Positions 1 to 38,730 of a stretch of 38,730 bases of DNA are shown piece after piece. Each line of letters begins with the position of its first letter. Position 1 is the stretch's first letter. The DNA is from a virus. Lineage: Duplodnaviria; Heunggongvirae; Uroviricota; Caudoviricetes. The notes beneath the pieces are model-generated. The model searched no databases, had not been told where the DNA came from, and saw only the letters and a list, made by a program, of their open reading frames with translations. The translations under genes and the position numbers were made by a program. The stretch lies in the IMG/VR virus record IMGVR_UViG_2778261630_000007, one strand, 5' to 3'.

Positions 1-609
1 ATCCTTCGTGATATCGGACGTCGGCTGGTCATATTCATCCGCGACAGCCGGACCATGATAACCGCACTCATCACCGCGATAGGTCCAGGTGCAGGTGTTG
101 GCCAGCATGATGCGCCCCGGAAAAACAGCACCATCCGTTTCCGTCGGTGTGGAGAGCACAAAGGAGGCACTGACCGCACTCAGTTCGCTGCACTGCTCGA
201 TGCGCCAGCGGCTGATCACCTCCTGCTCCGGATCGGCGTCGCTGTTTCCGTTGACGAAGTTCACCGCATCCAGAAAACGGGCGTAAACCTTACGCCTGAC
301 CACCGTTCCGCCGACCAGACTCTGCAGGTCTTCCGCCATCCCGGTGACCATGCCGTGCAGGTTAGAGACCGTCAGTGTCGGACGGGTAGCACTACCCTTA
401 CCGTTCAGTTCAAATCCCGTCCCCTGAATAGGGTATACCTGATACTGCCGCCCCTGCCAGGTGACCGGCTCACCTTTTTCGTTCTGCTCATTACAGAAAA
501 AATAACGTTCACCACCGACCTCTGTCAGATCGATTTCCCAGAGCACCACCTGGGCTGACTGAGTAAGGCGTGTCGTCTCATGATGTGTTTCCTGTCGTAT
601 GTCCTGCAT
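1..609 (-). CDS. minor tail protein L (lambda gpL-like); 3' end runs off the window
   Basis: Minus-strand frame open from ATG at 609 to position 1; translation [57 protein letters not shown]... closely matches lambda gpL as recalled. ATG overlaps the stop of the upstream M gene (ATGA). Not in the ORF track because no stop lies inside the window. Confidence 0.88.
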   Translation of the reverse strand, partial: MQDIRQETHHETTRLTQSAQVVLWEIDLTEVGGERYFFCNEQNEKGEPVTWQGRQYQVYPIQGTGFELNGKGSATRPTLTVSNLHGMVTGMAEDLQSLVGGTVVRRKVYARFLDAVNFVNGNSDADPEQEVISRWRIEQCSELSAVSASFVLSTPTETDGAVFPGRIMLANTCTWTYRGDECGYHGPAVADEYDQPTSDITKD

Positions 610-947
610 CAGATCACCACTTCGTCAAACTGACACGAAAAATCGGTATAGGTGATATGTTCTGTCGCTGACCACGTTCGACACACCACTCTGATTTTTC
701 TGTTAATACCCGGCGGGCGCCAAAAAAAAGATTTATAGCCTCCATGCCGAGCCAGAAACAGTTCAAATGAATTACGTTCATTCGCCTCAACCCTGAAATC
801 ACAGGTAAAAACACGCAGAGAATGATTAAGTCCGTTTGGGCTTCGTTGTTCATAACCATCGCCAAATCTTACAGTTTTTATCGATGGCTTATTTTCTGTT
901 TTCATTCCATCCTCTGGTAACCAGTAAAATTCTTCCGTATTAGCCAC
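609..947 (-). CDS. minor tail protein M (lambda gpM-like)
   Basis: ORF-track ORF; ...[16 protein letters not shown]...[16 protein letters not shown]...[10 protein letters not shown] resembles lambda gpM; sits between tape measure and L as in lambda. Start is GTG at 947; an alternative ATG at 905 is possible. Confidence 0.85.
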
Positions 948-3900
948 TTAACATTCCTCCATCACGTCGCATATTTAACAGAGCGCCCTGCACCCGCTGA
1001 TCAACCATCCCCATAAGTGCTTTTATTGCCTGAGGACCAATCTCTCCATTCTGGCCGTCATTTTGAATAGTGATTTGGTATACAGGGGCATAAGTAATAT
1101 CTCTGCCTCCATTACCACTTTTACTATTAATAGCTCTGACACCAAGAGAACCATCGGAAGTTCGCGTTAATGGCATAATAGCTTCCGGTCCAGCCTCACC
1201 AAAAACACCAGCTCCTTTTGCAAAAGCAAAAAATTGCGGGGAGTCATAAATACCGTTCGAATATGTACTCAATGACGGAGACTCATAAACACCGCCCTTT
1301 GCATTCGGAATAAATTTACTAATAGCACTCCCGATAGTTCCTAAAATACCCCCAGAAGAACTGTTACTAATGCTGTCGAAAATCCCAGTAATTGAAGCCT
1401 TTAATGCAATTCGACTAAGATCTGAAATCACGGAAGTAGCGAAAGAACGAAAATTTGCCTTGCCTGTCGTGACAAAATCACCTAGCGCATCGGTCATCCC
1501 ATCAAACATCTGAGTCGTGGTTGATTTTATTTGCGCACCGATATCCTTAGTGTCATCCAGCCAGTTATTGAATCCCTGGGAGGCACCACTAATCCAGTCT
1601 CCTGCCTGAATATCGAGCTGCTCGTTTTTCTGGCTGACAATTTCTTTTTCTCGCTCCAGAGCATCATTCAGAGCCTGCATTTTCTCCTGAAAAACATGAT
1701 TTGACATTCCACGGGATTTATCTGCATAGTCACGTTCAAGTTGCAGACGCTGATTGTTATATTCACGTTCAATCCGCAGTAATTCCTGCTGGCGTTGCTG
1801 ATTTTTATCGCCAACCCCATAACCAGCAATCTGAATATCATACCCCTGCTGACGATTATCAATCGAAGCCTGCAATGAATCACGCCATGCGGCTATTTCG
1901 GCGGATTCTTTGATTAGCCTGTTATTTTTTTCAATCGCAACATTTTTCTCCATCAACGCGGTTATTTCTTCCCGGTGTAAGAGAAGCGATTTCTGATCCT
2001 GGGTTAATTTCGATGACGGTCGTGACTCCAGGTCGGCAATCTGCTGACGCCACTTAACCAGTTCCTGTTCAGAGGAACTTAATTTAACGGTCAATTCAGC
2101 TTGTGAACTTAGTAACGCATTCTGTTGATTCAGATGATCAATCATTCGTTGGGCAGCATCATCCGAATAACCTTTCGCCTTTGGTTGCTTTGGATCTTTA
2201 TAACGCTCATTTATTTGAGCGATAAGATTATTATATTCTTCCTTTGAATACTGATTCTTTAGCTTTTCCAGTTTTGCAAGTTCACTAGCTCTCTGCTGCT
2301 CCCGGGTCTGATATTGTTTTGAAAAAGCATCTGCTCTCTGTCTGAGTTCAATTCCTTCCTGTTGTCGCTTGTTGTAATCGTTTATTGATGAATTTAGTAC
2401 GTCCTGAGCAATTTTTTCTGCTTGAAGTACGCCCAATTGCTGCTTTAATCGTGCCAGCTTTTTATTTTGAGCTCCGCCATCTCCAATGCCACCTAACCCG
2501 AAAACTCCGGGTCGGGTATTTTTTTCTATTTCATCAATTTGACGGAGAACATCTGAGATTTTTTGATCAAGGGAGGCCTCACGGCCAATATCCAGCATGG
2601 AATCCCATGCCCATTTTGCGGAGTCTGCGACAGCTTTCCATGCAGTCTCAAGATAACCAAGATTTTCTTTAATCTGGTTGGTGCGCTGGATCATTGAGGA
2701 TGAGTATGCTTCTGTCGCAATGCGGGCGGCCTCCTGCTGGTTCCCTTCATCCTGTAGCGCCTTAATCTGGTTATAAGTCGCAAGTGTCAGAAAATGGTAC
2801 TGATCATTAAGTTTTGATATAGCACTGACAGGATCCTTTGCAATTTCATTGAAGTCATTAACCAGTTGTTCGGTTGATATTCCTGTTACTTCGCTCGTTT
2901 TTACTATCGCTGTCGTCACTTGCTCCAGCGAACTGCTCGCTACCTTTCCCGAACGCACAAGCTGGTTTAATACTGCCGCCGCAGCGCCAGTTGTCGAATC
3001 AGCCGCATTCCCGGCACGTTGAGCTATATCGGCCAATTGCCCGCTGGTTGTCCCCAACTGATTTCCGGTAAGAATAAGAGATTTATTAAATTCGTCCTGC
3101 TCCTGAGAGCCTTTATAGTAAGCCAGCCCTAAGACGCCAACGGCTGCTGCGGCCAGGGTAAAAGGATTAATTAATCCCAGCACATAAGAACCTACACCTT
3201 TGATCGCCGGGCCAATCCCACCGAACATATCTTTTAGCTGGCCGCCCTGCTGCATTAACACCATAAATGGCGACTGACCAGTGGACAACCCAACAACAAT
3301 ATCCGTCATTTGTGCAGGCAACATGCGCATAGCAAAAGCCGTTTGTTTTGCCGACATTCCGGTTTTGCTTAATTGCGATTGAGTAACCTCAAGCTCACTC
3401 CGCATAGCACGAAGTTTTCCAGAAAGCTCCTCATACATTTCAGGAGAAAGCATCCCCTTAGCTTTTGCTTCATTGAGCTGTTTCTGTTGTTCTACCAGAC
3501 GATTAAAAGCAGTTCCGACAGGATCAAGTTGAGCAATCAGACGTTGCAAAGCAGCAACCTGTTCATCATGTGCTTTTGCTGCTTCTCGCTCTGCCTGAGC
3601 CTCTCCGGTAAGCTCTCGCCGTGTTTCCTGTATTTTTCGGCTATAATTCTCAAACTGAGAACCATTTATTTTCCCGGATGCAAACGCAGCATTAAGTTCA
3701 TCCTGCTGTTGTTCAAGATTTCTTAGCGCCGCAGCCAGAGGGTCGATCTTGTCCAGCATTCTTTGAAAGACCTGAGCCTGCGCTTCCTGCTGGGCGGCAG
3801 CAAGTTTTCCGGCCTTCTCGGCTTCTCTCTGCGCTTGCGCAACCCCGCTCAATTCCTCTGTGGTTTCATTAAGTTTACGGACAAGAAATTCATATTCTTC

Positions 3901-4173
3901 TTTATCAATAAGCCCTTTATCGAAAAATTTCTTTAATTCAGAATAGCGTCGACCGACAGTATCAATTGCGGCACCAACTGGATCAATAGCTGCTTTTAAT
4001 TTTGCGAGCGCGTTCTTCTCATCTTCTGTTGCCTTAGTCACTTTCCCTGCGCTATTTGCAGCAGTTTCCCCAGCCTGCGTCATTTTGACTAATGAGGAGG
4101 CCAGATTGTCAGCATTATTTTTCGCTCCAGTGCTATCAATAATTATTGCGAGACGCGAGGTTTGCTCTGCCAT
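940..4173 (-). CDS. tail tape measure protein (lambda gpH-like)
   Basis: 1077-aa ORF, long coiled-coil Ala/Gln/Glu-rich N-terminal half, Gly-rich hydrophobic central segment, position immediately after G/GT. AGGAG Shine-Dalgarno upstream of ATG at 4173. Confidence 0.9.
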
Positions 4174-4196
4174 TCATTAAAACTCCTGACAACAAA

Positions 4197-4216
4197 AAAC
4201 CCACCGAAGTGGGTTT
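4197..4216 (-). terminator. putative intrinsic terminator/attenuator hairpin between GT and the tape measure gene
   Basis: Minus strand reads AAACCCAC-TTCG-GTGGGTTT followed by TTTGTTGTC; 8-bp stem with tetraloop and U-run. Confidence 0.45.
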
Positions 4217-4336
4217 CAGGCGACATAATAGTAGATATAGCGATTACGAGGCCACGCAATGCTTTTCTCCAGGAGCATCATCGATTTAATTAAAGACACC
4301 ATCACATCTCTGTAACAGAGTGTACGTAATTAACAA

Positions 4337-4657
4337 CTACACACACTGCTCCTGAAAATACTGGTCATCCAGTGCAAAGATCACTGCTTCAAATTCATCG
4401 CGCTCGATCAATACCGGATGAGTGGCTAAATATTCATTTATCTCTGTCAGAGATAAAGGCAAAGGCACCCCAGTCATTCCAGCATAACGTCGGGCACGGG
4501 ATATTACCGAATAGGCGTACAACAATTCCTTAAGCACCGGGTCTATTTCTGGTTCCGGTATCGGTGGCAACCTGAGTTTTTCTCGCTTCCATCTTGCCTT
4601 TTCACCCTTTTCTCCCCCGAACTCCGATAACCACCGCTGGGCGGCTATGGCTTTTTT
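4337..4657 (-). CDS. T segment of tail assembly chaperone GT, reached by programmed -1 frameshift from G
   Basis: The -1 frame stays open from the slippery heptamer A_AAA_AAG (4651..4657) through the 77-aa ORF 4337..4570; classic G/GT arrangement just upstream of the tape measure gene. Confidence 0.7.
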   Translation of the reverse strand, partial: KKAIAAQRWLSEFGGEKGEKARWKREKLRLPPIPEPEIDPVLKELLYAYSVISRARRYAGMTGVPLPLSLTEINEYLATHPVLIERDEFEAVIFALDDQYFQEQCV

Positions 4658-5094
4658 ATCGTATCCTGCTTCTGCTGCTCTTTACCCTGGGCGATGCTGG
4701 CTGCTTCTGCAAGGATCTGCCAGTACAACTCCGGATTCTGCTTAAGCAGCGCGATCCCTCGTTCTGGCGTATATTCCAGTGCAACCTCAACACCATCAAC
4801 CAGTTCACCAACCCCTTTCCAGCCTTTCAGCAGATAACGAGCAGCATTATCAATGAGTAAATCATCAACAGAATCCACCTCGGAAACCTTTGCAATATCA
4901 AACTCCTTCGTTCCGACGTGCAAACTGGCATCCATTTTCTCAATGTGGCGACGGATTAATGCATTACGGGAGCGATACTGATCGTTATCGCTGCTTGCCA
5001 CCAACAGTTTTAACCCGTCTACAGGTTTTAAGTCCTTCATTGGGGTAAACCAGCGTTCACCACCGATGATAATTTTCTGATTAAGAATAAACAT
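4645..5094 (-). CDS. tail assembly chaperone G
   Basis: ORF between major tail and tape measure genes; ends ...ATA AAA AAG CCA TAG with a slippery heptamer two codons before the stop; ATG at 5094 preceded by GAGG (alternative ATG at 5106). Confidence 0.8.
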   Translation of the reverse strand: MFILNQKIIIGGERWFTPMKDLKPVDGLKLLVASSDNDQYRSRNALIRRHIEKMDASLHVGTKEFDIAKVSEVDSVDDLLIDNAARYLLKGWKGVGELVDGVEVALEYTPERGIALLKQNPELYWQILAEAASIAQGKEQQKQDTIKKP

Positions 5095-5154
5095 CCATAA
5101 CCTCATTCAATGCGCCCCCCTGTAGTGCAGTACCACAGGGGGAATAACGGAAAA

Positions 5155-6117
5155 TCAACTAATCGCCTCAGCACTGGCTTTTGCGATCACGGCAGCCGGG
5201 GAGGCTTTTTTTCTGGTTATCGTAGGTGCTTCATCTGCTGCGGTAATGCTCAATTGAACCTGGATAATGTCGGTATTACCCCCATCAGGCCATTCACCTG
5301 ACATCTGAACCTTCGGGAAACTGAAAGTGTATGCCCCCTCTCCATTCGAAAGCGTGAAGCTGAACGGAACTGTTTCTCCAGTCAGTGTTTTACTCCAGAT
5401 TTCCCACGCGGCTTTAGACCATGAAAGCGTCACCGTACCGGACGGTGTAAAAGTAGTCGGAATATTTGCTCCTGCATAAGGCGAGCCAGTCCCGATACAA
5501 CGCTGTGTCTGGAGTTTGTTATCGAACTGAATATCAAAACTGTCGATACAAAAACCGTTACCTCCGGCAACACCATTCAGGCTTACTGCTGAAACCTCCT
5601 TAAACGAATAACGTAGCTTTCCTGCACTATCCACAGGTTCGCCTTTGATAAAATTCGTATCATCGGCCTTTGATTCCCAGTCCAGCCCGGCAAAGGTTAC
5701 GGTCGCCGTAATATCGCCGTCGTTAGGGATCTGCATTTTCCATGAGCCAACCTGCGCTCCTCTGACAACAGAGGCAATTCCGACATCGGACGCATAGGTC
5801 GCCAGAGAAAATGTTATTCGCTCATTCCCCATTGTCAGAGAATCACCTGACCATTCCGCGCCGAAACAGGATGCAAGAAAATCATCATGTTGACCCCAGC
5901 GAAATTTGGTACCAACATCACCGCCAACATCCACAGTGCCAGGCGTCGCCCCCTGAGCCATCCGGGAGCCACCAATCTCATTATTTTCGCCTTTATTCTG
6001 GGTGGGTTTTACTCCCCAGCTTGTGCGTTTTAATAAACTCCAGTCACCACTTGCTGGTGTGGTGCCTGCAACTGTCTCCCGGATAAATGCCGAGATAACC
6101 TTTGCACCTGAACTCAC
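5155..6117 (-). CDS. major tail tube protein
   Basis: 320-aa ORF between the tail-terminator-like gene and G; GTG start at 6117 preceded by AGGAGG; Gly/Thr/Ser-rich beta-type composition. Confidence 0.75.
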   Translation of the reverse strand: MSSGAKVISAFIRETVAGTTPASGDWSLLKRTSWGVKPTQNKGENNEIGGSRMAQGATPGTVDVGGDVGTKFRWGQHDDFLASCFGAEWSGDSLTMGNERITFSLATYASDVGIASVVRGAQVGSWKMQIPNDGDITATVTFAGLDWESKADDTNFIKGEPVDSAGKLRYSFKEVSAVSLNGVAGGNGFCIDSFDIQFDNKLQTQRCIGTGSPYAGANIPTTFTPSGTVTLSWSKAAWEIWSKTLTGETVPFSFTLSNGEGAYTFSFPKVQMSGEWPDGGNTDIIQVQLSITAADEAPTITRKKASPAAVIAKASAEAIS

Positions 6118-6143
6118 AGGAGCCTCCTATGTCATTAATTGCG

Positions 6144-6536
6144 CTAGAGCGCGCGATATGGAATTTGAAGATTAAGCTGGAACCAGCCATTCTTTTCGCC
6201 AACGGTTATTGAGGAAACAGCCTGGTAACTGAGACGGTCGTCATCCTGAAACTCAAACAGTTCCCGCAATTTATCGGCTGTCTCAGTAATGAGTTTTGAA
6301 CCAGAACCTGCGGGGACAAATAACTGAATAATGATTATCCCCGTGCGATAAACAACCGGCCCCGCACCAATTTCATTAACTCCAGCCTGCCCGGGAATAT
6401 TACTTAACCGCGCCCAGATTAACTTACCGGAAGGATCGAACGTTGGCCCGTTCGGATACAATACGTCTTTTCCATTAATAACCGTCTGTGCCGTCATTCT
6501 GGAAATGACCGTATTTCTGATTTCAGTAAACGTCAT
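6144..6536 (-). CDS. tail terminator protein (gpU-like, by position)
   Basis: 130-aa ORF directly upstream of the major tail gene; overlaps the neighbouring gene by 4 bp. Confidence 0.6.
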   Translation of the reverse strand: MTFTEIRNTVISRMTAQTVINGKDVLYPNGPTFDPSGKLIWARLSNIPGQAGVNEIGAGPVVYRTGIIIIQLFVPAGSGSKLITETADKLRELFEFQDDDRLSYQAVSSITVGEKNGWFQLNLQIPYRAL

Positions 6537-6913
6537 TTGTAAGCCTGTAAAACACCATGAAAAGCGTTGGCATACACGCCAGTTGGCGCTTGTTGTGAAT
6601 GACCGTTTTCAAGAGCCTCTGCATAAGGAAGGTTATTCTGGATATAAATAATTCCGTAATTTGCAGCTTTCGAAATAACCCCGATCCCACGCTGAACCGC
6701 AATCGTACCGTTCGGATCCACGTTATCAGATATACCAAAATCGGGATGCTGTAACGACACCATGTTGTTATTTCTGAAACGCCCGGTATCAACCGGAGCA
6801 GCAATATCGATAGCAGTAAGAATCTGAATAGCGATGTAGCGAATTTTCAGCCCCACATCTTCCTCAATCATCCCGGCAAATATTGACGGTTCGATATCCC
6901 ATGCCTTTGCCAT
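6533..6913 (-). CDS. tail completion protein (gpZ / HK97 gp10-like, by position)
   Basis: 126-aa ORF in the head-tail joining block; tightly packed with neighbours. Confidence 0.55.
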   Translation of the reverse strand: MAKAWDIEPSIFAGMIEEDVGLKIRYIAIQILTAIDIAAPVDTGRFRNNNMVSLQHPDFGISDNVDPNGTIAVQRGIGVISKAANYGIIYIQNNLPYAEALENGHSQQAPTGVYANAFHGVLQAYK

Positions 6914-7300
6914 TTACGCTCTCCTTAACTGGATTGAGTAAACTGATGCGGAAGGATCTACACTCGCTGTAATTACCTCGTATCGTTGCAACTGCCTTGA
7001 TACAGGATCATAAATCTCAATAATATGGCCGACAGCGGGTTTATCCGTAACCTCGCATACCAGAGCTGTTAATTTAAGGTCACCATGCAAAATATTAATC
7101 CCATCAATTCTGCCCAGCTTATAACGCGTCAACACGCCTCGCCCGGTATAGGTTGCTGTGGATTCGCCGCCAGTTTCCGTCACTGGATTCCAGTTCCGGT
7201 GCGCAACGTAAGAACCAGAAAAATCACTCACGGCGTCTGCTAAATCCTCATCAAAAGCAGCGGCAACCTCTGACTGAATCTCTTCACGAAGCCCCATCAT
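6914..7300 (-). CDS. head-tail adaptor / head closure protein
   Basis: 128-aa ORF in the head-tail joining block, overlapping neighbours by 1 to 4 bp. Confidence 0.55.
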   Translation of the reverse strand: MMGLREEIQSEVAAAFDEDLADAVSDFSGSYVAHRNWNPVTETGGESTATYTGRGVLTRYKLGRIDGINILHGDLKLTALVCEVTDKPAVGHIIEIYDPVSRQLQRYEVITASVDPSASVYSIQLRRA

Positions 7301-7692
7301 CCCCCCCTCACAACCCTGACTTGTGAGCGACTAAGTCCGTACGGTTTCAGCAGTGCTATCGCAAGCTGTAAATCGGGTTCAAGCAATGCAGTGCTGTTTG
7401 CTGGCAATTCAGCAAATGATTTCGATACACTGACCCCGTCAGCCGACACGGCTTTACTGATAACAACGCCAGAATCATTTTTCTGCTGAAACAACTTACC
7501 GACAGAGGCAATTCTGGCTGCATATGCTCCCGCAAGTTTTACCTCTTCCGGAATACGGGATGGGTTAATTTTCAGGCCGAAGCCATTAAGCCAGGCATTA
7601 GCCATTAAAACAGCTTTATTTTTAGCGTTCTCACTCGTCCAGGCGTTCCCAAACGCATTATCAACGTCATCACAGGTCACGTAAGTGATCAT
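7297..7692 (-). CDS. head-tail connector protein (gp6-like)
   Basis: 131-aa ORF downstream of the capsid gene; position and size typical of connector proteins. Confidence 0.55.
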   Translation of the reverse strand: MITYVTCDDVDNAFGNAWTSENAKNKAVLMANAWLNGFGLKINPSRIPEEVKLAGAYAARIASVGKLFQQKNDSGVVISKAVSADGVSVSKSFAELPANSTALLEPDLQLAIALLKPYGLSRSQVRVVRGG

Positions 7693-7695
7693 GTG

Positions 7696-7920
7696 TTACT
7701 CCTGAGTTTTCCAGCCCAGAGCCTTCCAGTTGTCAACTTCATCAGGATGAACATTAGCGATAGTTGGTGCGCCGGGAAACATCTGATAATCGGTCACCAT
7801 AACCACTAACTCAATTTGCGTTTTTTGTGGCTCCTGAATTTGCTCCACATTTTGCTCCACCACTGCATTTTTTTGCGCGGCTTCACGCTGTGCTCTTTGC
7901 TCTTTAGTTAATCCGGCCAT
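7696..7920 (-). CDS. small head-module protein, unknown function
   Basis: 74-aa ORF between the capsid gene and the connector gene; acidic and Gln-rich. Confidence 0.45.
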   Translation of the reverse strand: MAGLTKEQRAQREAAQKNAVVEQNVEQIQEPQKTQIELVVMVTDYQMFPGAPTIANVHPDEVDNWKALGWKTQE

Positions 7921-7931
7921 ATACCCTCCAT

Positions 7932-7952
7932 TAAAAATGGGGCCGAAGCCCC
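7932..7952 (-). terminator. putative intrinsic terminator after the major capsid gene
   Basis: Minus strand GGGGC-TTCG-GCCCC followed by ATTTTTAAT; lies 11 bp downstream of the capsid stop. Confidence 0.45.
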
Positions 7953-7962
7953 GTTTGGATGT

Positions 7963-9102
7963 TTAACCAAGAATCAGACAACCATGTGCCGGTTTCACTG
8001 ACGAAACACCCCATGCCAGTCCAACTTCATAGCGCACCTGGCGATACTGACGATACAGTGCAATCTGGAACGTAATCCCTGAAATCGGGTCCGTAACATT
8101 CATTACATCATCAGCATTATCGCCACCTTCCGGCATTGCCGGAGTACGGGATGCCAGCAGAAACGCGTTGCGATCAAACGCCATATTTGCAGTAAAGGAG
8201 CCAACAACTGTGATTGCAGTATCATCGGCCAGATCCTGACGCAGTCCCGGTGCTGCAAGAGTAATCAGATTGCTGGTCGCTGCTGCCACAACATACTGAT
8301 TAGGATCGCCAGCGAACGTAACAATCTGACCTGCAGAAATACTCCCCGAACCAGTATCAATGGAAATAAGAACATCGCCTTCTTTTTTCTCGCCATTCAC
8401 GAGATAACCAGTTGCAGCAACCTTTGGCGCTCGTTTTACACCTGCCGAACTGTGAATATTGAATCCCTCCAGACGCCCCAACACGCCCTCACGCAGTAGC
8501 TGTTCAGTGCCGGATTCATTCACTTTAAACAATACAGACTGTTTTCCGCGCAAATTAGCAATGGCAGTGGAACCAAGCACCATCTGCAGATCTGTTGTCG
8601 GTGCGCCGTTATCCTCCAGAACCTGACGAGCCAGAGCAGCATCAGAAAGATCATCTTTAACACCAAACGGCGTTGTCCCTGCGGTTCCCACGGCGCGGGA
8701 AGCACCGAAATACAACACACCAAGATCAGCCTCAACCTCGTTTGCAAGGGCGCGAAAAGCCTGCTTGAACTGATCAGCCAGAATGGTGTTGTAAGTCCCT
8801 GAAGGGCCAAGAGCCAGTTGTTCTTCACCATTCCATTTAACCGGCGCCATTTTGGATTTAGTAATTTTTACATCAACAGTGCCAATATTTTGATCACCGG
8901 TATTCGGAGCTGACGGCCCCGGTACGATATCTTCGGTTTTCGCCTCAGGCGCAACTGGCGCGGTTACCGTCTGATCTTTTGCTGCTGCGTCAGCTTTTGC
9001 GTTTTTTGCTACCGCAGGGATAAAACCTACCTGCTCACGGGATACAACATCCAGGGCGGTGTAAATAGTCGGGATCAACCCGGTCAGGGTATTTCCAGCC
9101 AT
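7963..9102 (-). CDS. major capsid protein
   Basis: ORF follows the scaffold gene; ATG at 9102 (MAGNTLTGLIP...) preceded by AAGGAA; the ORF-track start at 9195 is an upstream alternative-start extension. Confidence 0.8.
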   Translation of the reverse strand: MAGNTLTGLIPTIYTALDVVSREQVGFIPAVAKNAKADAAAKDQTVTAPVAPEAKTEDIVPGPSAPNTGDQNIGTVDVKITKSKMAPVKWNGEEQLALGPSGTYNTILADQFKQAFRALANEVEADLGVLYFGASRAVGTAGTTPFGVKDDLSDAALARQVLEDNGAPTTDLQMVLGSTAIANLRGKQSVLFKVNESGTEQLLREGVLGRLEGFNIHSSAGVKRAPKVAATGYLVNGEKKEGDVLISIDTGSGSISAGQIVTFAGDPNQYVVAAATSNLITLAAPGLRQDLADDTAITVVGSFTANMAFDRNAFLLASRTPAMPEGGDNADDVMNVTDPISGITFQIALYRQYRQVRYEVGLAWGVSSVKPAHGCLILG

Positions 9103-29649: not shown

Positions 29650-29703
29650 ATGCGATAAGGGTAGGGATTGCCTAATGCAATGAGCATAGGAGAATATTAA
29701 GCA

Positions 29704-30487: not shown

Positions 30488-30622
30488 ATGGTGCATTACG
30501 AAGTAGTTCAGTATTTGATGGATTGTTGCGATATCACTTACAGCCAGGCTGTACAGGCTCTACGCAGCAACGACTGGGATCTCTGGCAGGCAGAAGCCTC
30601 TATCCGCAACAACAAAATGTGA
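30488..30622 (+). CDS. ydaG: YdaG-like small protein (44 aa), below the ORF-track threshold
   Basis: ATG at 30488 preceded by GGGGAGAG; MVHYEVVQYLMDCCDITYSQAVQALRSNDWDLWQAEASIRNNKM; size and position match Rac ydaG. Confidence 0.55.
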   Translation: MVHYEVVQYLMDCCDITYSQAVQALRSNDWDLWQAEASIRNNKM

Positions 30623-30632
30623 GGTGCGAAAA

Positions 30633-30788
30633 ATGCAAAAAATCGACCTCGGCAATAACGAATCCCTAGTGTGCGGCGTGTTCCCCAACCAAGATGGAAC
30701 GTTCACTGCTATGACGTATACCAAAAGCAAAACATTTAAAACCGAAACTGGTGCGCGCCGATGGTTGGAGAAGCACACAGTAAGCTAA
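30633..30788 (+). CDS. ydaF: YdaF-like small protein (51 aa), below the ORF-track threshold
   Basis: ATG at 30633 preceded by GAGGTG; MQKIDLGNNESLVCGVFPNQDGTFTAMTYTKSKTFKTETGARRWLEKHTVS. Confidence 0.55.
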   Translation: MQKIDLGNNESLVCGVFPNQDGTFTAMTYTKSKTFKTETGARRWLEKHTVS

Positions 30789-31273
30789 CGATTAAAACGT
30801 CTACTCCTGCTGTTCCAGAATAACTTCATAAAATGGGAGTATTTTTCGGTGACGAGATAATAAGAACAGTTTGCGCTATCACTCTGATGTTGAATGATGC
30901 CCTTCCGTTCTAATTTTTTCATAACCGGGTTACGGCAAGGAGAAGTGATAATAAGATTTCCTGTTTTAAGGAAATCTTTAAATACAGCGATTTCTTTCTC
31001 AGATAAACGAAGCAATACTCGTTGCTCTGGTAGTAATGAATAATGCTTTTGAATATGTGCTCGCAATCTTGAGAAGGAAATGGCGACCACGAAAGAAAAG
31101 GCAAAAACGATAATCTGAAAGAGCCAAGGTATTTCAGTATAAGCATTGAATTCGACAGTAAACTCTTTCGGTATCAGCCAGAGAGTGAGACCAAAAATGA
31201 TAATCGTATACATAAGTCTTTCGAGTAGCTCGTTAGCAAAAAGTTTCAACAATGGAGTAAATACATCCAACAT
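30785..31273 (-). CDS. sieB: superinfection exclusion protein B
   Basis: 162 aa from ATG at 31273 (MLDVFTPLLKLFANELLERLMYTIIIFGLTLWLIPKEF...); two TM segments; AT-rich; matches Rac SieB size and position. Confidence 0.8.
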   Translation of the reverse strand: MLDVFTPLLKLFANELLERLMYTIIIFGLTLWLIPKEFTVEFNAYTEIPWLFQIIVFAFSFVVAISFSRLRAHIQKHYSLLPEQRVLLRLSEKEIAVFKDFLKTGNLIITSPCRNPVMKKLERKGIIQHQSDSANCSYYLVTEKYSHFMKLFWNSRSRRFNR

Positions 31274-31491
31274 ATCAATAATTCTCAACTGTAAGGGTAT
31301 TGAAATGTTAACACAAGCTCTCGCTGTAGGGGTATAGCCGAGACCACCGAAGCCCGGAGGTGGTGAAATAAAACCGGGCACAACACGAAGGCGCACTTCC
31401 GGTATCCATAAAGAGTCGGTCTTGTCTGTTAAATTTAAATGGTGGGAGTGCGCCTCCGGTTGTAAATAACAACACTGCTGTGTGTAGTCTT

Positions 31492-31539
31492 GGCGGCATC
31501 AGTTTTTTCTTGAAGTTCGACTGATGTCCGCCCTTTTTA
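31492..31539 (+). terminator. putative + strand hairpin with U-run upstream of kilR (terminator or antitermination element)
   Basis: GGCGGCATCAG ... CTGATGTCCGCC (11 to 12 bp stem, 18-nt loop) followed by CTTTTTAAA. Confidence 0.35.
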
Positions 31540-31713
31540 AAGTGAATTTTGTGATGCGGTGAATGCGGCTAAGCGCACGCGGCACAGTTAAAAGTCATGT
31601 TAGTCCTTATTGGTTTGGGTGGGAAAGCCGACTGTAATTGTTAACTGGTTGCAGTCACCTGGAGGCACCAGGCACCGCATCAACAAAGTTCATTTGTAAA
31701 AATGGAGATAATT

Positions 31714-31935
31714 ATGATTGCACATCACTTCGGAACTGATGAAATACCACGTCAGTGTGTGACTCCTGGTGATTATGTTCTTCATGAAGGCCGGACATAT
31801 ATCGCCTCGGCAAACAATATTAAAAAGCGAAAACTTTATATTCGTAACCTGACTACAAAAACATGCATTTCTGACTGCATGATTAAAGTCTTCCTCGGTC
31901 GTGATGGTTTACCAGTAAAGGCGGAGTCATGGTGA
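31714..31935 (+). CDS. kilR: KilR, FtsZ-targeting cell division inhibitor
   Basis: 73 aa from ATG at 31714 preceded by GGAGA; [49 protein letters not shown]... matches Rac KilR as recalled. Confidence 0.85.
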
Positions 31936-32105
31936 TGACTAAGAAAATAAAATGTGCTTACCACCTTTGCAATAAAGGAATTGAAGAAAGCAAAAGCATT
32001 AAAAGACCACTTCATTTCATGCGTGGAGTTATCCCAACGACGGAAATGAAAAAATATTGTAGTGAAAATTGTGCCGAAAAAGACCAGATGGCACACGAAC
32101 TTTAA
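31935..32105 (+). CDS. ydaE: YdaE-like small Cys-rich protein (56 aa)
   Basis: ATG at 31935 overlaps the kilR stop (TGATG); [56 protein letters not shown]. Confidence 0.7.
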   Translation: MTKKIKCAYHLCNKGIEESKSIKRPLHFMRGVIPTTEMKKYCSENCAEKDQMAHEL

Positions 32106-32178
32106 TTAACTGACTATGCGAAACTGAATTTATGCCAGCAATGGCAGGGATTCGCTCAACCTTAATTAAGGAGAAAAA

Positions 32179-32454
32179 ATGATTACCAATTATGAAGTCA
32201 CTGTTGTAACTACCGATGACATTGTTCACGAGGTTAATCTGGAAGGAAAGCGTATTGGCTACGTGATTAAAACAGAAAATAAAGAAACCCCATTCACTGT
32301 GGTTGATATTGACGGCCCATCAGGCAACGTAAAAACACTTGATGAAGGTGTCACAAAAATGAGTCTGGTTCACATCGGAAAGAATCTGCCCGTAGAAAAA
32401 AAAGCCGGATTTCTGGCAACTCTGATTGCAATGAAATTAAAAGGTGAAATCTGA
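32179..32454 (+). CDS. racC: RacC protein
   Basis: 91 aa; AAGGAGA upstream; MITNYEVTVVTTDDIVHEVNLEGKRIGYVIKTENKETPF... matches Rac RacC as recalled. Confidence 0.8.
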   Translation: MITNYEVTVVTTDDIVHEVNLEGKRIGYVIKTENKETPFTVVDIDGPSGNVKTLDEGVTKMSLVHIGKNLPVEKKAGFLATLIAMKLKGEI

Positions 32455-32552
32455 AAAAAGAAAGCCTGCACAACGTGCAGGCCTGAGTGAAGAACCTGGG
32501 ACATTTATTCATCACTCGCAGTAATTTTAATCTGAGTTGAGGTTAAAAAACA

Positions 32553-33284
32553 ATGAGCACAAAACCACTCTTCCTGTTACGGAAAGCGAAAAAATCATCC
32601 GGTGAACCTGACGTCGTCCTGTGGGCAAGCGACGATTTTGAATCGACCTGTGCCACTCTGGACTACCTGATCGTTAAGTCAGGTAAAAAACTGAGCAGCT
32701 ATTTTAAAGCTGTTGCCACGAATTTTCCTGTCGTTAATGACCTGCCCCCTGAAGGTGAGATCGATTTTACCTGGAGTGAACGCTATCAACTCAGCAAAGA
32801 CTCCATGACCTGGGAACTAAAATCGGGAGCAGCGCCAGACGACGTTCACCATCAGGAGAATGCTCAGGAAACCGAAGAACTGACGGGAGGGCAGGAAGAA
32901 AACACACTGGCAGACGCTCACGGGGATTGCCAGGATTGCGAAGTTTCTGTATCTACTTTGCGGTTCACACAGCGTCTTCTGCACATTTTTACGTATGCGG
33001 CCGGGAATCGGAAATACCTGCATCATGCCACCCGTGAACAACGCGAACACATTACTGCTCTTGAGATGGATCAGGAAAACAGCTATGTCCAGAATCTGCT
33101 GTTGGCCATACGCGGTATGGCAGAACCGACAACTCTGGATAATGCCGCCCTGCTCCGCCTGACTGATGCAATTAAGGCAGTTTTCTCTATCACGAAAAAA
33201 CATCAGCCCTATGAATTTAAGAATTTCATTTCAGCCTGGCTGGATACCGAACACATTGATCGTGGTCTTCTGACAAAAGAATGA
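32553..33284 (+). CDS. recE: RecE (exonuclease VIII) N-terminal segment, ending at an in-frame TGA
   Basis: MSTKPLFLLRKAKKSSGEPDVVLWASDDFESTCATLDYLIVKSGKKLSSYFKAVATNFPVVNDLP... matches the RecE N-terminus as recalled; TGA at 33282..33284; the downstream ORF is in the same frame with no intervening stop. Confidence 0.7.
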   Translation: MSTKPLFLLRKAKKSSGEPDVVLWASDDFESTCATLDYLIVKSGKKLSSYFKAVATNFPVVNDLPPEGEIDFTWSERYQLSKDSMTWELKSGAAPDDVHHQENAQETEELTGGQEENTLADAHGDCQDCEVSVSTLRFTQRLLHIFTYAAGNRKYLHHATREQREHITALEMDQENSYVQNLLLAIRGMAEPTTLDNAALLRLTDAIKAVFSITKKHQPYEFKNFISAWLDTEHIDRGLLTKE

Positions 33285-33431
33285 AGGAAAGGGAATCGTG
33301 TTTCACGCATCACTCGCACGGCTTCCGGTGCTAATGCTGGCGGCGGGAACCTCACCGATCGCGGCGAAGGTTTCGTCCACGATCTGACGTCACTGGCACG
33401 CGATGTAGCCACTGGCGTACTGGCCCGTTCA

Positions 33432-35675
33432 ATGGACGTGGACATCTATAACCTTCATCCGGCACACGCTAAACGCATTGAGGAAATTATCGCTGAAAAT
33501 AAACCGCCCTTTTCTGTTTTCCGCGACAAATTCATCACCATGCCTGGCGGGCTGGATTATTCACGCGCCATCGTGGTTGCGTCCGTGAAAGAAGCACCAA
33601 TTGGGATCGAGGTCATCCCCGCGCACGTCACTGAATATCTGAACAAAGTACTGACTGAAACCGATCATGCCAACCCTGATCCGGAAATCGTGGATATTGC
33701 CTGCGGTCGCTCCTCTGCCCCGATGCCGCAGCGTGTAACAGAAGAAGGAAAACAGGATGATGAAGAAAAACCGCAACCATCTGAAACAACGGCAGATGAA
33801 CAGGGAGAGGCTGAAACAATGGAACCGGACGCAACTGAACATCATCAGGACACGCAGCCGCTGGATGCTCAGTCACAGGTAAATTCTGTTGATGCGAAAT
33901 ATCAGGAACTGCGGGCAGAACTCCATGAAGCCCGGAAAAACATTCCATCAAAAAATCCTGTCGATGCCGATAAATTGCTTGCTGCATCACGTGGTGAATT
34001 TGTTGACGGAATTAGCGACCCGAACGATCCGAAATGGGTTAAGGGGATCCAGACTCGCGATTCTGTGTACCAGAACCAGCCAGAAACGGAAAAAACCAGC
34101 CCGGATGTGAAACAACCTGAGGCAGTAGTGCAACAGGAACCGGAAATAGTCTGCAATGCCTGCGGTCAGACTGGCGGAGATAACTGCCCTGACTGTGGGG
34201 CGGTGACGGGCGACGCAACATACCAGGAAACATTCGATGAAGAGAATCAGGTTGAAGCTAAGGAAAAAGATCCGGTGGAAATGGAAGGCGCTGAACATCC
34301 GCACAATGAGAATGCTGGCAGCGATCCGCATCGTGATTGCAGTGATGAAACTGGTGAAGCGTCAGCTCCTGTAGCAACTGAAATCATGTGGCCGTCATAT
34401 TTCGAGCCTGGCCGCTATGAAAACCTCCCGAACGAGGTTTATCACTCCGCCAACGGAATAAGCAGCACGATGCTGAAGGATGCCCGTATCAGCCTGATGT
34501 ATTACCACGGACGGCACATTGCCGGAACTATTCCGAACGAGGAAAGTGATGCACTGCTGCGTGGGCGGATCATTCACAGCTATGTTCTGGAAACGGATAA
34601 ATTCGCTGATGAATATGCCATTCCGGTACCGGTTCCTGAATATGTGGTTACTACTTCTAGCGAACTGATCGCCATCATTAAAAAACACAATGCCAGTCTG
34701 CCAGCACTGATGACACCAGAGCAGATGAAAGAGTGGATCGAAAGCTACAACAGCACTCTTATACAGCCACTGTCTGTAAGTGCCGGGGCCGAAGAAACAG
34801 GCATCCTTTACGGTTCGCTTCCGGTGGAATTTCGGCGTATTCCTGAGGGGGAAAAACACACAGCATCAGCAATGAAAGCCTGTATTAAAGAATACAACGC
34901 AAGCCTCCCTCCTCTGTTGAAAACCAGTGGAGCACGGGAGCAGCTTCTGGATCAAATTGAAACTGTAGACCCAGAACTGGCAAAAAAAGAACGTGCTAAA
35001 TCTTTGCCTTACAACATCAGTGGCACAAAAGAGCAATTAACCGAAATCGCACGGAAAATTCGCCCGGAACTGGTGACACTGGAGGACTGGCAAAAACGCC
35101 AGCAAGAAGAAAATGCCGGGAAAACGTTTATCAGTCCGGAGATGTATGAACAGGCAAAAAATATTCACGCGGCACTGCAAAACAATACCGATGCAGCAAG
35201 GCTACTCAACCACCCGGATCGCAAATCTGAAATCAGCTATTTCGGGTTTGATGAAGAAACCGGGCTGGAAATCAGGGTCCGTCCTGATATCGAAATCCGG
35301 CTGCCATACGAAAGCATTTGCGCTGACGTGAAGTCAGTCAGCCTCGGTTATGTGCGACAGGAACGACTTAAAGATCGCCTGCACCGTGAAATTATTGAGC
35401 GTGATTATCACCTCAGCGCCGCAATGTATTGCGATGTGGCAAACCTGGACAAATTTTTCTGGATCTTCGTCAACAAAGATGCTGGCTATCACTGGGTGGC
35501 AGTCGTGGAAGCCTCGCAGGAACTCCTGGAACTTGGTCGACAGGAATATCGCCGGACGCTACGCCAGATAAACGAAGCCCTGGAGACAAACAACTGGCCA
35601 GCACCGATTACCGAAAGTTATACCGACGAATTAAACGACTTTGATCTTCGTCGTCTTGAAGCACTGAGCATCTGA
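33432..35675 (+). CDS. recE: RecE (exonuclease VIII) central region and C-terminal nuclease domain
   Basis: 747-aa ORF in the same frame as 32553..33284; the 49 codons between them also read as RecE-like ([33 protein letters not shown]...); acidic central linker; C-terminal domain is divergent from K-12 RecE as recalled. Confidence 0.75.
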
Positions 35676-35686
35676 GGAAGGACACA

Positions 35687-36739
35687 ATGAACGAATTAAC
35701 TCAACAAGAAAATATTAACTCTAATGTTGCGGTTTTCAGCCCTCAGTCCCTGGCTGCAATTCAGACATTTTCCCAGGTAATGGCTTCCGGCATGGCTACT
35801 GTACCGGAACACCTCCGGGGAAATCCATCAGACTGCATGGCCATCACCATGCAGGCGATGCAGTGGCAAATGAACCCTTACGCAGTAGCTCAGAAAACTT
35901 TCGTTGTGAATGGTGTGCTCGGATATGAAGCGCAACTGGTTAATGCCGTAATCAGTACTCGTGGGCCGCTAACCGGGCGTATTGAATATGACTGGTTCGG
36001 GCCGTGGGAAAAAATTATCGGGAAATTTGAAATCAGGAAGAGCGACAAAGGGAAAGAATATCGTGTACCTGGCTGGAAGCTGGCCGATGAAAACGGGATC
36101 GGTGTTCGTGTCCAGGCAACACTACGCGGCGAAAGTAAACCACGCGTACTGGAATTACTTCTGGCGCAGGCCAGAACACGTAACTCAACGCTATGGGCCG
36201 ACGATCCTCGCCAGCAGCTTGCCTATCTAGCGCTGAAACGCTGGGCGCGCCTTTATTGCCCCGAAGTGATTCTTGGAGTGTACACCAGGGACGAACTGGA
36301 CGAGCCACAGGAAAAAATCATTAATCCGGTTCAGGAACATAAAAACACTTCCGCTTGCCGCGCGGAACGTGAAACAACAATTATTGAGCAGGATGCCGGG
36401 GAAAACTGGATCGATGCTTTCCGTGAACGTATTGAGCAGGCACAAAGCACCGGGGAAACAACAGCACTTCGCCAGGAAGTGGAAGATCATAAAAATACAC
36501 TTGGCGCTCTCTATACGGAACTTAAAGGAAAAGTGGTTCAGCGTCATCACCGTCTCAATGCTATTGCCCGTATCGAGAAGATGATAAATGACCTACCTTC
36601 TTCAGGTGATCCAGAAGCAGAACAAAAATTTACTGCTCTGGAAAATACGCTGAATGCTGCCCGGCCACATCTGGGTGAATTATATGAGGCGTATAAAACG
36701 ACACTGACAGATATGAAACCAGAATATATCGGCTCCTGA
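35687..36739 (+). CDS. single-strand annealing protein (RecT/Redbeta superfamily, Bet-like)
   Basis: 350 aa directly after recE with GAGGAAGGA upstream; ...QWQMNPYAVAQKTFVVNGVLGYEA... and ...STLWADDPRQQLAYLALKRWARLY... resemble lambda Bet more than K-12 RecT. Confidence 0.65.
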   Translation: MNELTQQENINSNVAVFSPQSLAAIQTFSQVMASGMATVPEHLRGNPSDCMAITMQAMQWQMNPYAVAQKTFVVNGVLGYEAQLVNAVISTRGPLTGRIEYDWFGPWEKIIGKFEIRKSDKGKEYRVPGWKLADENGIGVRVQATLRGESKPRVLELLLAQARTRNSTLWADDPRQQLAYLALKRWARLYCPEVILGVYTRDELDEPQEKIINPVQEHKNTSACRAERETTIIEQDAGENWIDAFRERIEQAQSTGETTALRQEVEDHKNTLGALYTELKGKVVQRHHRLNAIARIEKMINDLPSSGDPEAEQKFTALENTLNAARPHLGELYEAYKTTLTDMKPEYIGS

Positions 36740-36802
36740 TATTGACTTTGGCGGTGTAGCCTCACCGCCATCACAAAATTTTATTTTATGAGAGAAAAGA
36801 CA

Positions 36803-36997
36803 ATGCGGTATGAAAAAGTCAAACCATGCCCTTTTTGTGGTTGTCCATCAGTAACGGTGAAAGCCATTTCCGGATATTACCGCGCGAAGTGTAACGGATG
36901 CGAATCCCGAACCGGCTATGGTGGAAGTGAAAAAGAAGCACTCGAACGATGGAATAAACGAACCACTGGAAATAATAATGGAGGTGTTCATGTATAA
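36803..36997 (+). CDS. ralR: restriction alleviation protein Lar/RalR
   Basis: 64 aa from ATG at 36803; MRYEKVKPCPFCGCPSVTVKAISGYYRAKCNGCESRTGYGGSEKEALERWNKR...; Cys4 zinc-ribbon; position between the annealing protein gene and ydaC as in Rac. Confidence 0.65.
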   Translation: MRYEKVKPCPFCGCPSVTVKAISGYYRAKCNGCESRTGYGGSEKEALERWNKRTTGNNNGGVHV

Positions 36998-37178
36998 AAT
37001 TACCGCCACTATTGAAAAGGAAGGTGGCACTCCTACTAACTGGACAAGGTACTCAAAAACAAAATTAACCAAATCAGAATGCGAAAAAATGCTCTCAGGT
37101 AAAAAAGAAGCAGGCGTTTCCAGAGAGCAGAAAGTAAAACTGATAAATTTTAATTGCGAGCAACTTCAGTCCTCGTGA
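36990..37178 (+). CDS. ydaC: YdaC-like small protein
   Basis: ATG at 36990 preceded by GGAGGTG; MYKITATIEKEGGTPTNWTRYSKTKLTKSECEKMLSGKK...; 8-bp overlap with lar. Confidence 0.6.
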   Translation: MYKITATIEKEGGTPTNWTRYSKTKLTKSECEKMLSGKKEAGVSREQKVKLINFNCEQLQSS

Positions 37179-37277
37179 ATTGCATTGTATTCAAATTAAA
37201 ACTTCATAGCTGATTATTAATAATCAACATCGGGCGTCAATTTCAGTCTAACATTGGCGCCTGCCAGAGGTGATGCG

Positions 37278-37493
37278 ATGGCACAAGTAATCTTTAATGA
37301 AGAGTGGATGGTTGAATACGGCCTGATGCTTCGCACTGGTCTGGGGGCCAGACAAATTGAAGCATACCGCCAGAACTGTTGGGTGGAAGGCTTCCACTTC
37401 AAACGAGTATCTCCTTTAGGGAAGCCAGACAGTAAGCGAGGGATTATCTGGTACAACTATCCAAAGATAAATCAGTTTATCAAAGACTCATGA
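37278..37493 (+). CDS. xis: excisionase (Xis-like)
   Basis: 71 aa from ATG at 37278 preceded by GAGGTG; immediately upstream of int with a 1-bp gap; small basic protein. Confidence 0.7.
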
Positions 37494-37494
37494 T

Positions 37495-38730
37495 ATGTCT
37501 AAATTACCAACAGGTGTCGAGATTCGAGGTAAATACATTCGCATCTGGTTCATGTTTCGAGGAAAACGATGTCGGGAAACATTGAAAGGCTGGGAGGTTA
37601 CTAACAGTAACATTAAAAAAGCCGGGAATTTAAGAGCGTTGATAGTTCATGAAATCAATTCCGGTGAATTTGAGTATTTAAGACGTTTCCCCCAGTCCAG
37701 CACTGGGGCAAAAATGGTGACAACGAGGGTCATAAAAACGTTCGGGGAGCTTTGTGATATCTGGACAAAAATTAAAGAGACAGAGTTAACAACAAACACA
37801 ATGAAGAAAACGAAATCACAATTAAAAACACTCAGGATAATAATTTGTGAGAGTACCCCAATATCACATATTCGTTATAGCGATATCTTAAACTACCGGA
37901 ATGAACTGCTGCATGGAGAAACGCTTTACCTGGATAATCCAAGATCCAACAAAAAAGGAAGAACCGTGCGCACAGTTGATAACTATATCGCCCTGCTCTG
38001 TTCGTTGTTACGTTTTGCGTATCAGTCGGGATTTATATCAACCAAACCATTTGAAGGAGTAAAAAAATTACAGCGAAACAGAATAAAGCCTGATCCGTTA
38101 TCTAAAACAGAATTCAATGCATTAATGGAAAGTGAAAAAGGACAGAGCCAGAACTTGTGGAAATTTGCCGTTTACTCCGGGCTTCGTCACGGGGAACTGG
38201 CTGCTCTGGCGTGGGAGGATGTGGATTTCGAGAAGGGAATTGTGAATGTCAGAAGAAACCTGACGATACTTGATATGTTCGGTCCCCCAAAAACAAATGC
38301 GGGGATTCGGACGGTAACACTACTGCGGCCTGCTATTGAAGCACTGAAGGAGCAATACAAACTAACCGGGCATCATCGCAAAAGCGAAATCACTTTTTAT
38401 CATCGGGAGTACGGCAGAACCGAAAAGCAAAAACTGCATTTTGTTTTCATGCCCAGGGTGTGTAACGGAAAACAGAAACCTTATTACTCGGTAAGCAGTC
38501 TGGGGGCGAGATGGAATGCAGCAGTAAAACGTGCTGGTATTCGCCGCCGTAATCCGTACCATACGCGGCATACTTTTGCCTGCTGGTTGTTGACGGCAGG
38601 AGCGAACCCGGCATTTATAGCCAGCCAGATGGGGCATGAAACTGCGCAGATGGTGTATGAAATTTACGGTATGTGGATTGATGACATGAACGACGAACAG
38701 GTAGCTATGTTGAATGCGCGGTTATCGTAG
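37495..38730 (+). CDS. int: tyrosine site-specific integrase (Rac IntR-like)
   Basis: 411 aa; C-terminal catalytic region ...HTRHTFACWLLTAGANPAFIASQMGHETAQMVYEIYGMW... with the R/H-x-x-R/Y signature; stop TAG at 38728..38730, so the att site lies just past the window. Confidence 0.9.
   Translation: MSKLPTGVEIRGKYIRIWFMFRGKRCRETLKGWEVTNSNIKKAGNLRALIVHEINSGEFEYLRRFPQSSTGAKMVTTRVIKTFGELCDIWTKIKETELTTNTMKKTKSQLKTLRIIICESTPISHIRYSDILNYRNELLHGETLYLDNPRSNKKGRTVRTVDNYIALLCSLLRFAYQSGFISTKPFEGVKKLQRNRIKPDPLSKTEFNALMESEKGQSQNLWKFAVYSGLRHGELAALAWEDVDFEKGIVNVRRNLTILDMFGPPKTNAGIRTVTLLRPAIEALKEQYKLTGHHRKSEITFYHREYGRTEKQKLHFVFMPRVCNGKQKPYYSVSSLGARWNAAVKRAGIRRRNPYHTRHTFACWLLTAGANPAFIASQMGHETAQMVYEIYGMWIDDMNDEQVAMLNARLS

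Follow-up and report, generated by a model that had tools for sequence, protein, structure and literature searches.

The IMG/VR virus record IMGVR_UViG_2778261630_000007, assigned to the tailed viruses (Caudoviricetes), consists of 38,730 nucleotides, and this whole stretch, referred to here as the window, very probably represents about 80% of a Rac-family prophage, a full-length temperate lambdoid siphovirus inserted in the 5' end of the Escherichia coli ttcA gene. Two traits expected of a member of the Rac family were found, namely the ttcA insertion site and immunity and integration genes orthologous to those of Rac. The features of a lambdoid siphovirus are also present, including Q, a holin-endolysin-Rz/Rz1 lysis cassette, and a lambda-type tail with the G/G-T frameshift, tape measure, M and L; an N-like antiterminator was not among the genes identified in the window, where no test was aimed at one. 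An earlier note on this DNA, made without database searches, had proposed an apparently intact prophage that may be inducible, a description that is plausible as far as the genes that can be inspected are concerned.

Source and Limits of the Window

By means of the 243-residue N-terminal fragment of RecE, the window was traced to contig NLTD01000007.1 (238 kb) of the E. coli draft assembly GCA_002232835.1, to which it is identical over 16,178 bases, and to a Logan contig of run SRR3407787, to which it is identical over 14,045 bases. Position 2 of the NCBI contig corresponds to position 1 of the window; the left limit is the end of the contig, located within the tail gene L (residues 1-203 of 232). 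The right limit is the stop codon of int at 38730, after which the contig continues with ttcA, dbpA, ynaL, zntB and dgcM. The host is E. coli, since this chromosomal flank is 97.9% identical to that of K-12 and 98.0% identical to that of strain 042. Long open reading frames (ORFs) are nearly all on the minus strand between positions 1 and 29580, and from 29704 onwards most of them are on the plus strand.

In the source contig, a 26-bp att core (TTGTTCAGGTTGTATTGTTCTTTCTT) occupies the bases 76-101 past position 38730, beside ttcA-dbpA, and this int-side core is identical to both att copies that bound the Rac prophage of K-12. It is the only att core visible. The left boundary and the att site had been placed outside the window, which holds for the far site, located on another contig, and has to be extended to the int-side site, which also falls past the end.

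Comparison With the Cryptic Prophage Rac of K-12

The whole-prophage alignment to K-12 Rac that had been proposed as a check was performed by BLAST with the cryptic prophage of E. coli K-12 (NC_000913.3, 1411899-1434958) as the reference. It produced five collinear blocks with 96-99% identity (window 3239-4996, 16605-19035, 26744-32854, 33258-34373, and 36749-38730) and revealed three losses in K-12. The first deletion corresponds to window positions 4997-16604 (11.6 kb) and comprises the tail tube gene, all the head and packaging genes and most of the gene encoding a ParB-like protein. The second one corresponds to positions 19036-26743 (7.7 kb) and affects part of Rz, the lysozyme and holin genes, the tRNAs, Q, the nin-type genes and the end of the DUF1627 gene, and the third removed the tape measure gene beyond codon 312 together with all that follows it, tail tip included. 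These deletions explain three K-12 genes as remnants or fusions. By tblastn, ynaK encodes the first 86 residues of the ParB-like protein (16601-16858), ydaW encodes the first 151 amino acids of the DUF1627 protein fused to Rz sequence, and ynaA encodes the N-terminal 312 amino acids of the tape measure protein (3238-4173). At the junctions of the first two deletions (4996/16605 and 19035/26744) microhomology extended over at most 1-2 bp.

K-12 Rac and the window copy share the ttcA site and the 26-bp core, as well as intR, xisR, rcbA, ralR/RalA, racC, kilR, sieB, ydaF/G, racR-ydaS-ydaT, ydaU/V, rzoR and trkG, with 89-100% protein identity and conserved order. Unlike K-12 Rac, the window copy contains a nonsense codon in recE and another allele of the RecE nuclease domain and of RecT. 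Thus, the Rac gene content predicted from the letters alone was borne out by tblastn matches of the K-12 proteins, by Rfam matches for RalA and sok, and by RacR, which exceeded the NCBIfam equivalog cut-off (245 bits vs 200). The BLAST blocks, together with collinearity with the prophage of strain 042, likewise support the proposal that this Rac-family prophage keeps the late genes that K-12 lost. It has been published that K-12 Rac is a deleted form of prophages whose counterparts in other strains look complete (PMC6379469, which refers to Lawrence 2001 for EDL933).

The Late Module

From the ParB-like gene through the terminase, portal, capsid, connector, tube and tape measure genes to the tail gene M, every gene is full length and its product is 99-100% identical to that of the 042 prophage, as observed by tblastn of the 042 proteins (Table 1). 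The morphogenesis block had been described as complete. It is indeed unbroken over this interval, and the description overstates the case because the window, like its contig, stops within gene L, leaving K, I, J, lom and the fibre genes outside. A slippery heptamer (A AAA AAG, 4657-4651 on the minus strand) is located just before the stop codon of G and the -1 frame is open for about 105 codons; therefore, the G/G-T frameshift arrangement is preserved. The family of the terminase points to headful packaging.

Over window positions 1-16000 the late module shows 21 differences in 16 kb relative to 042 (99.87% identity), while the ttcA-dbpA chromosome beside the prophage (16179-20732 in the numbering of the compared record) is 98.0% identical. 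Because this near-identity stands beside a 2%-diverged chromosome, the late module appears to have been exchanged between lineages recently, as would be expected of a phage that is active now or was so recently. Substitutions relative to 042 amounted to 51 synonymous and 21 non-synonymous (dN/dS 0.12), and the comparison with a relative designated ST70 gave a dN/dS of 0.17.

A megablast survey of 5,426 complete E. coli genomes showed that the left 20 kb of the window are covered to at least 80% in 693 of them, that is, the late module is present in 13%, with the best matches being 99.2-99.4% identical and including APEC O1 and 042. The right 18.7 kb were covered to at least 80% in one genome (83%, the best value) and to 72-78% in other relatives among the matches listed, and the right-half relatives among these matches always had a Rac-type early region with intR, recE, ydaU and ydaV. 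Since the left half is widespread and the right half is differently assembled in each close relative, the element can be regarded as a mosaic of common modules.

Related Prophages and Phages

The ttcA prophage of strain 042 (NC_017626.1, about 1533.7-1578 kb) is collinear with the window throughout and its late proteins are full length. It differs in having its own helix-turn-helix repressor and a Cro of another type, neither of which had a tblastn match in the window, in the presence of QueH in place of window positions 23.2-26.0 kb, and in the recombination genes, as its RecT shows 64% identity, the N-terminal region of its RecE diverges in part and its recE contains no stop. KingRac, by its published description, is also Rac-related, has 46.8 kb and resides at ttcA (PMC6731689; PMC12251178). 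This prophage is an active one from a mouse commensal E. coli (Frazao et al. 2019, PMC6731689; PMC12251178); upon lysogenisation it takes the place of K-12 Rac, and it is weakly induced by mitomycin C, forms tailed particles and lysogenises K-12 at ttcA (PMC6731689; PMC12251178).

HK639 (NC_016158), a viable lambdoid siphovirus, resembles the window copy in the capsid module (portal 69%, MuF-like protein 50%, scaffold 66%, and major capsid protein 75% identity), and differs in its terminase, tail, immunity and integration modules, lacking also trkG and the pair of genes encoding the ParB-like protein and a TAGT-family glycosyltransferase. In turn, Rac-SA53 (KU052037), an LT-IIa enterotoxin prophage, also resides at ttcA, its int, xis, recET, kilR and replication genes being of the Rac type and its 26-bp attP being annotated, and covers 59% of the right half of the window with 93% identity; unlike the window copy it has a myovirus-like baseplate late region, dicA/dicC-type immunity and toxin cargo.

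Two sets of records named as phages were set aside. The ON4705xx records, the closest ones named as phages, were rejected as evidence of viability as they are prophages predicted in silico with chromosomal flanks. 'Salmonella phage SPF_0923' (ON032529.1), labelled in GenBank as a complete phage genome, consists of 35 kb of E. coli-type chromosome that runs from Rz/trkG, shortly upstream of terS, through this late region into sitABCD, uspF, ompN and ydbK, and was rejected as an isolated phage counterpart because it contains sitABCD, uspF and ompN. It may have arisen by in situ (lateral-transduction-like) packaging from a Rac-type prophage, or be host DNA present as a contaminant. The iron/manganese transporter genes sitABCD are found just past the tail-fibre end of the Rac-type prophage in some relatives (ST70 and SPF_0923), and may be either prophage cargo or an adjacent island.

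Immunity and Integration Functions

The 123-bp intergenic region between racR and ydaS (29581-29703) contains two TAGGC-N3-GCCTA palindromes and a third half-site, and is 93.5% identical to that of K-12, being less conserved than the flanking proteins. The palindromes are probably operators of RacR. The window copy should share immunity with K-12 Rac because its repressor is of the K-12 RacR type, other types being present at many Rac sites (e.g., in 042). IntR differs from the K-12 integrase by six substitutions, all of them conservative. IntR and XisR of K-12 reportedly still excise Rac, a result credited to Liu et al. in 2015 (cited in PMC6379469).

The recE-recT Region

The in-frame stop reported for recE in the earlier note is real and consists of a TGG to TGA change in codon 244 (Trp244 to stop), where 042 has Trp. 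The sequence of strain 190 is identical over 801 nt apart from a G instead of A at 33284, and the two next closest genomes checked also carry G, so the stop is a private G-to-A transition. As the earlier note had also stated, no other gene is broken within the window. The next ATG (33432), ahead of which no obvious Shine-Dalgarno sequence was found, opens an ORF of 747 amino acids with the whole PF12684 nuclease domain; PF06630 is located on the 243-residue piece. Lambdoid phages can grow in recA+ hosts without recombination functions. Given this dispensability, the retention of the nuclease domain in the 747-residue ORF and the possibility of UGA read-through, recE would be dispensable and its stop probably should not block phage growth. 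Low-level read-through by tRNA-Trp would give back the native residue.

The RecE C-terminal nuclease domain is 29% identical to that of K-12, while the N-terminal region (about 600 residues) is Rac-like, and the K-12 RecT query had no tblastn match in the window. As judged from these alignments, the nuclease domain and RecT have been swapped together, as a unit, for a distant allele (34373-36749), which fits the known need for cognate exonuclease-annealase pairs.

Intactness and Inducibility

By analogy with lambdoid phages, RacR would keep the prophage silent, and loss of repression would lead to the expression of YdaS/YdaT, replication and Q-dependent late transcription. DNA would then be packaged by the headful mechanism, by the Terminase_6-type enzyme, into an HK639-like capsid, and a lambda-like tail would be assembled with the G/G-T frameshift chaperones. 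Lysis would follow assembly, and excision would be performed by IntR/XisR. In agreement with the proposed intactness, the recE stop is the sole lesion in the window, and all the late, lysis, replication, immunity and int/xis ORFs are full length compared to 042 and/or K-12.

Several observations weigh against an intact and inducible prophage. The end of L and the genes K, I, J, lom and the fibres, as well as the far att site, are outside the window and its contig; in relatives, L-K-I-J-lom-stf-tfa are present past this point. A search for LexA boxes in the whole 38.7-kb window gave 0 sites, and the domain searches with RacR detected no LexA-like S24 autocleavage protease domain. Because of the lack of both, a classical SOS induction route is not apparent, and any induction is likely weak, as published for KingRac. 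If recT, ralR, xis and int are co-transcribed with recE, its nonsense codon could exert polar effects on them. Moreover, the ST70 relative shows decay, with a truncated ParB-like gene and a frameshifted racC. The dN/dS values are based on few substitutions, the counts for head and tail genes being small on their own, and KingRac is likened to this prophage by its published description. As neither the tail tip and fibres nor the far att site can be seen and no SOS-responsive switch is visible, the chance that this copy yields infectious particles is put at about even.

The alternative that survives best, a serious possibility though somewhat short of an even chance, is that the prophage is defective despite its tidy look, because a lesion outside the window or polarity of recE on xis/int blocks the formation of infectious particles, the element being a grounded prophage kept for its cargo (trkG, sieB, hok/sok, ralR/RalA, and tRNAs). 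The unseen tail tip and far att site beyond a contig that ends in L, a private nonsense mutation that precedes recT-ralR-xis-int on the same strand, the existence of locally decayed relatives and the missing SOS switch are all in line with this explanation. On the other hand, each inspectable gene besides recE is intact, the late module is far less diverged than the adjacent chromosome, which argues for recent mobility, and K-12 IntR/XisR, to which the products of this copy are 98.5-100% identical, still excise Rac.

That the late region is ancient and vertically inherited, as a domesticated remnant under host-level selection, is improbable. Rac-type elements occur at the same locus in most E. 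coli, with a value of 69% of strains (PMC6379469), and the purifying selection on the late genes is a pattern that host-level selection could also yield. However, 21 differences in 16 kb beside a 2%-diverged flank do not represent co-divergence, and vertical inheritance of the late module was rejected on this basis. In addition, each close relative has its own mosaic in the right half (best coverage 83%), which is typical of exchanging phages, and 22 contiguous genes for virion, packaging and lysis functions serve no known purpose in the host. That the recE stop, or the apparent completeness, is an artefact of assembly or sequencing is very unlikely in spite of the draft nature of the source assembly and of a stop that is a single base change, since the same 243-residue truncated product is encoded on the NCBI contig and on the independently assembled Logan contig; as the Logan run is perhaps of the same isolate, an assembly error is rejected and a mutation arisen in culture is not.

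Accessory, Lysis, and Replication Genes

The features of the window are compiled in Table 1. The potassium transporter gene trkG is located between the lysis and the packaging genes. Both tRNA genes lie in the 1.3-kb, mostly non-coding interval between Q and the holin gene (19765-21050), together with several terminator-like hairpins, one of which, just downstream of Q, is a candidate Q-controlled late terminator. The Q-holin interval is where Stx phages carry their toxin genes. A mosaic block with the eight small accessory genes (23160-26011) stands where the 042 and ST70 prophages carry the QueH segment. A PADLOC scan of the cargo proteins detected no defence system, and the only strong match was a ParB domain resembling that of ParB-methyltransferase fusions; two marginal matches to LmuB (E about 1e-3) were disregarded.

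Table 1. Features of the 38,730-nt window in order of position. Identities to K-12 proteins are from tblastn of the K-12 Rac proteins against the window.
Feature	Position	Strand	Evidence and remarks
Minor tail protein L, N-terminal 203/232 residues, cut by contig end	1-609	minus	100% identity to 042 L residues 1-203
Minor tail protein M	612-947	minus	100% identity to 042
Tail tape measure protein, 1077 aa	943-4173	minus	100% protein identity to 042, 1 synonymous difference
Tail assembly chaperone G (ydaY) and -1 frameshift extension G-T	4337-5004	minus	phrog_313
Major tail tube protein	5158-6117	minus	100% identity to 042 'phage tail tube protein'
Tail terminator and four head-tail connector/completion genes	6147-7920	minus	Full length, 99-100% identity to 042
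Major capsid protein, P22-coat family	7966-9102	minus	PF11651, phrog_283; 75% identity to HK639 capsid
Scaffolding protein, DUF6651	9204-9965	minus	PF20356, phrog_206; 66% identity to HK639 gp05
Minor head/head morphogenesis protein, Mu F / SPP1 gp7-like	10073-11182	minus	PF04233, phrog_241, TIGR01641
Portal protein, DUF4055	11169-12572	minus	PF13264, phrog_145; 100% identity to 042
Terminase large subunit, Terminase_6 N and C domains	12578-13876	minus	PF03237, PF17289
Terminase small subunit, Terminase_2, 364 aa	13860-14951	minus	PF03592, phrog_51
Small 69-aa protein, related to terminase small subunits	14958-15164	minus	phrog_309, partial match
TAGT-family (GREB1-related) GT-A glycosyltransferase	15145-16074	minus	PF20691 (E 3e-35), phrog_842; 'GREB1-related' in PGAP
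ParB/Srx N-terminal-domain protein, 263 aa	16070-16858	minus	PF02195, phrog_620
trkG, potassium transporter, low-GC cargo	16999-18453	minus	100% identity to 042, 99.2% to K-12 TrkG; GC 39-41%
Rz	18594-19055	minus	Full length
Rz1/rzoR, embedded in Rz	18653-18835	minus	Full length; 98% to K-12 RzoR
Lysozyme	19055-19549	minus	Full length
Holin	19552-19764	minus	Full length
tRNA-Gly(UCC) and tRNA-Thr(UGU)	20543-20696	minus	ARAGORN, Rfam; same pair in 042
Terminator-like hairpin	20939-20970	minus	Consensus scan only
Q-type late antiterminator, DUF1133	21068-21592	minus	82% identity to 042 protein; named antitermination protein Q in related records
DUF1364 (ybcO-like) and DUF1367	21592-22478	minus	97% and 96% identity to 042
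hokD toxin gene and sok antisense RNA region	22950-23272	minus	tblastn for hokD; Rfam sok, 120 bits
Eight small accessory genes	23394-26011	minus	DUF551, DUF7167, PHROGs without assigned function
DUF977 and full-length DUF1627	26012-27193	minus	
Replication genes ydaV (DnaC/IstB-like) and ydaU (DUF1376)	27219-28826	minus	97-99.6% identity to K-12 and 042; YdaV 97% and YdaU 98.6% to K-12
ydaT	28842-29261	minus	100% to K-12
ydaS	29287-29580	minus	99% to K-12; PF15943 YdaS_toxin; YdaS_toxin/P22_Cro families
racR	29704-30180	plus	99.4% to K-12
ydaG, ydaF, sieB (30788-31273), kilR, ydaE, racC	30488-32451	plus, sieB minus	To K-12: YdaF 100%, SieB 99%, KilR 96%, RacC 94.5%
recE, 1040 codons, in-frame TGA	32553-35675	plus	Stop at 33282-33284
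RecT-family annealing protein, 350 aa	35687-36739	plus	PF03837, phrog_561; 64% identity to 042 RecT
ralR toxin	36803-36994	plus	97% to K-12
rcbA/DUF1187	36990-37196	plus	96% to K-12
RalA antitoxin RNA	36996-37174	minus	Rfam
xisR excisionase	37278-37490	plus	100% to K-12
intR tyrosine integrase	37495-38730	plus	98.5% to K-12

A ParB-TAGT Gene Pair

Directly upstream of the small terminase gene, the genes encoding the ParB-like protein and the TAGT-family (TET/JBP-associated) glycosyltransferase overlap and form a pair. The TAGT protein has the invariant DDD at residues 102-104 and a confidently predicted GT-A fold over its first 215 residues, and a PDB sequence search with this protein returned nothing. 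A Pantoea prophage and a metagenome phage, both with other terminase/portal families, likewise carry the ParB-TAGT pair just ahead of their terminase genes, and the pair recurs on contigs from soil or metagenome-assembled genomes that carry no terminase gene. The TAGT enzymes characterised so far glycosylate already modified cytosines in T-even phages (PMC13390438), and ParB-like proteins activate phage thymine dioxygenases (bioRxiv 10.1101/2025.08.14.668559). No TET/JBP dioxygenase or hydroxymethylase gene was found among the genes of the window or of the 042 prophage, and a literature search for ParB plus TAGT gave no direct match. It may be speculated, as a rather unlikely option, that the pair is a self-contained cassette that glycosylates phage DNA or a packaging component without a TET/JBP dioxygenase, in which the ParB-like protein would load the enzyme on DNA or activate it, by analogy with the ParB-dependent thymine dioxygenases.

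Significance

The proposal of a full-length Rac-family prophage is correct in substance and already known, because prophages of this type are common, have been described in the literature (PMC6379469, PMC6731689) and have their late module in 693 genomes. As a discovery it matters little, being one more copy of a widespread and described kind of prophage. Its value lies elsewhere, since the window provides a base-by-base reference for how the textbook cryptic Rac arose from a full-length phage through three deletions, and the K-12 RacR immunity type makes this copy a convenient full-length partner for work on Rac repression, excision and the possible headful/lateral transduction of ttcA-fnr. 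Within the window, real potential for novelty is confined to the ParB-TAGT pair. If the function hypothesized for it were true, an undescribed system of DNA modification or anti-restriction would be present in a common E. coli prophage, and ynaK of K-12 would be its fossil.

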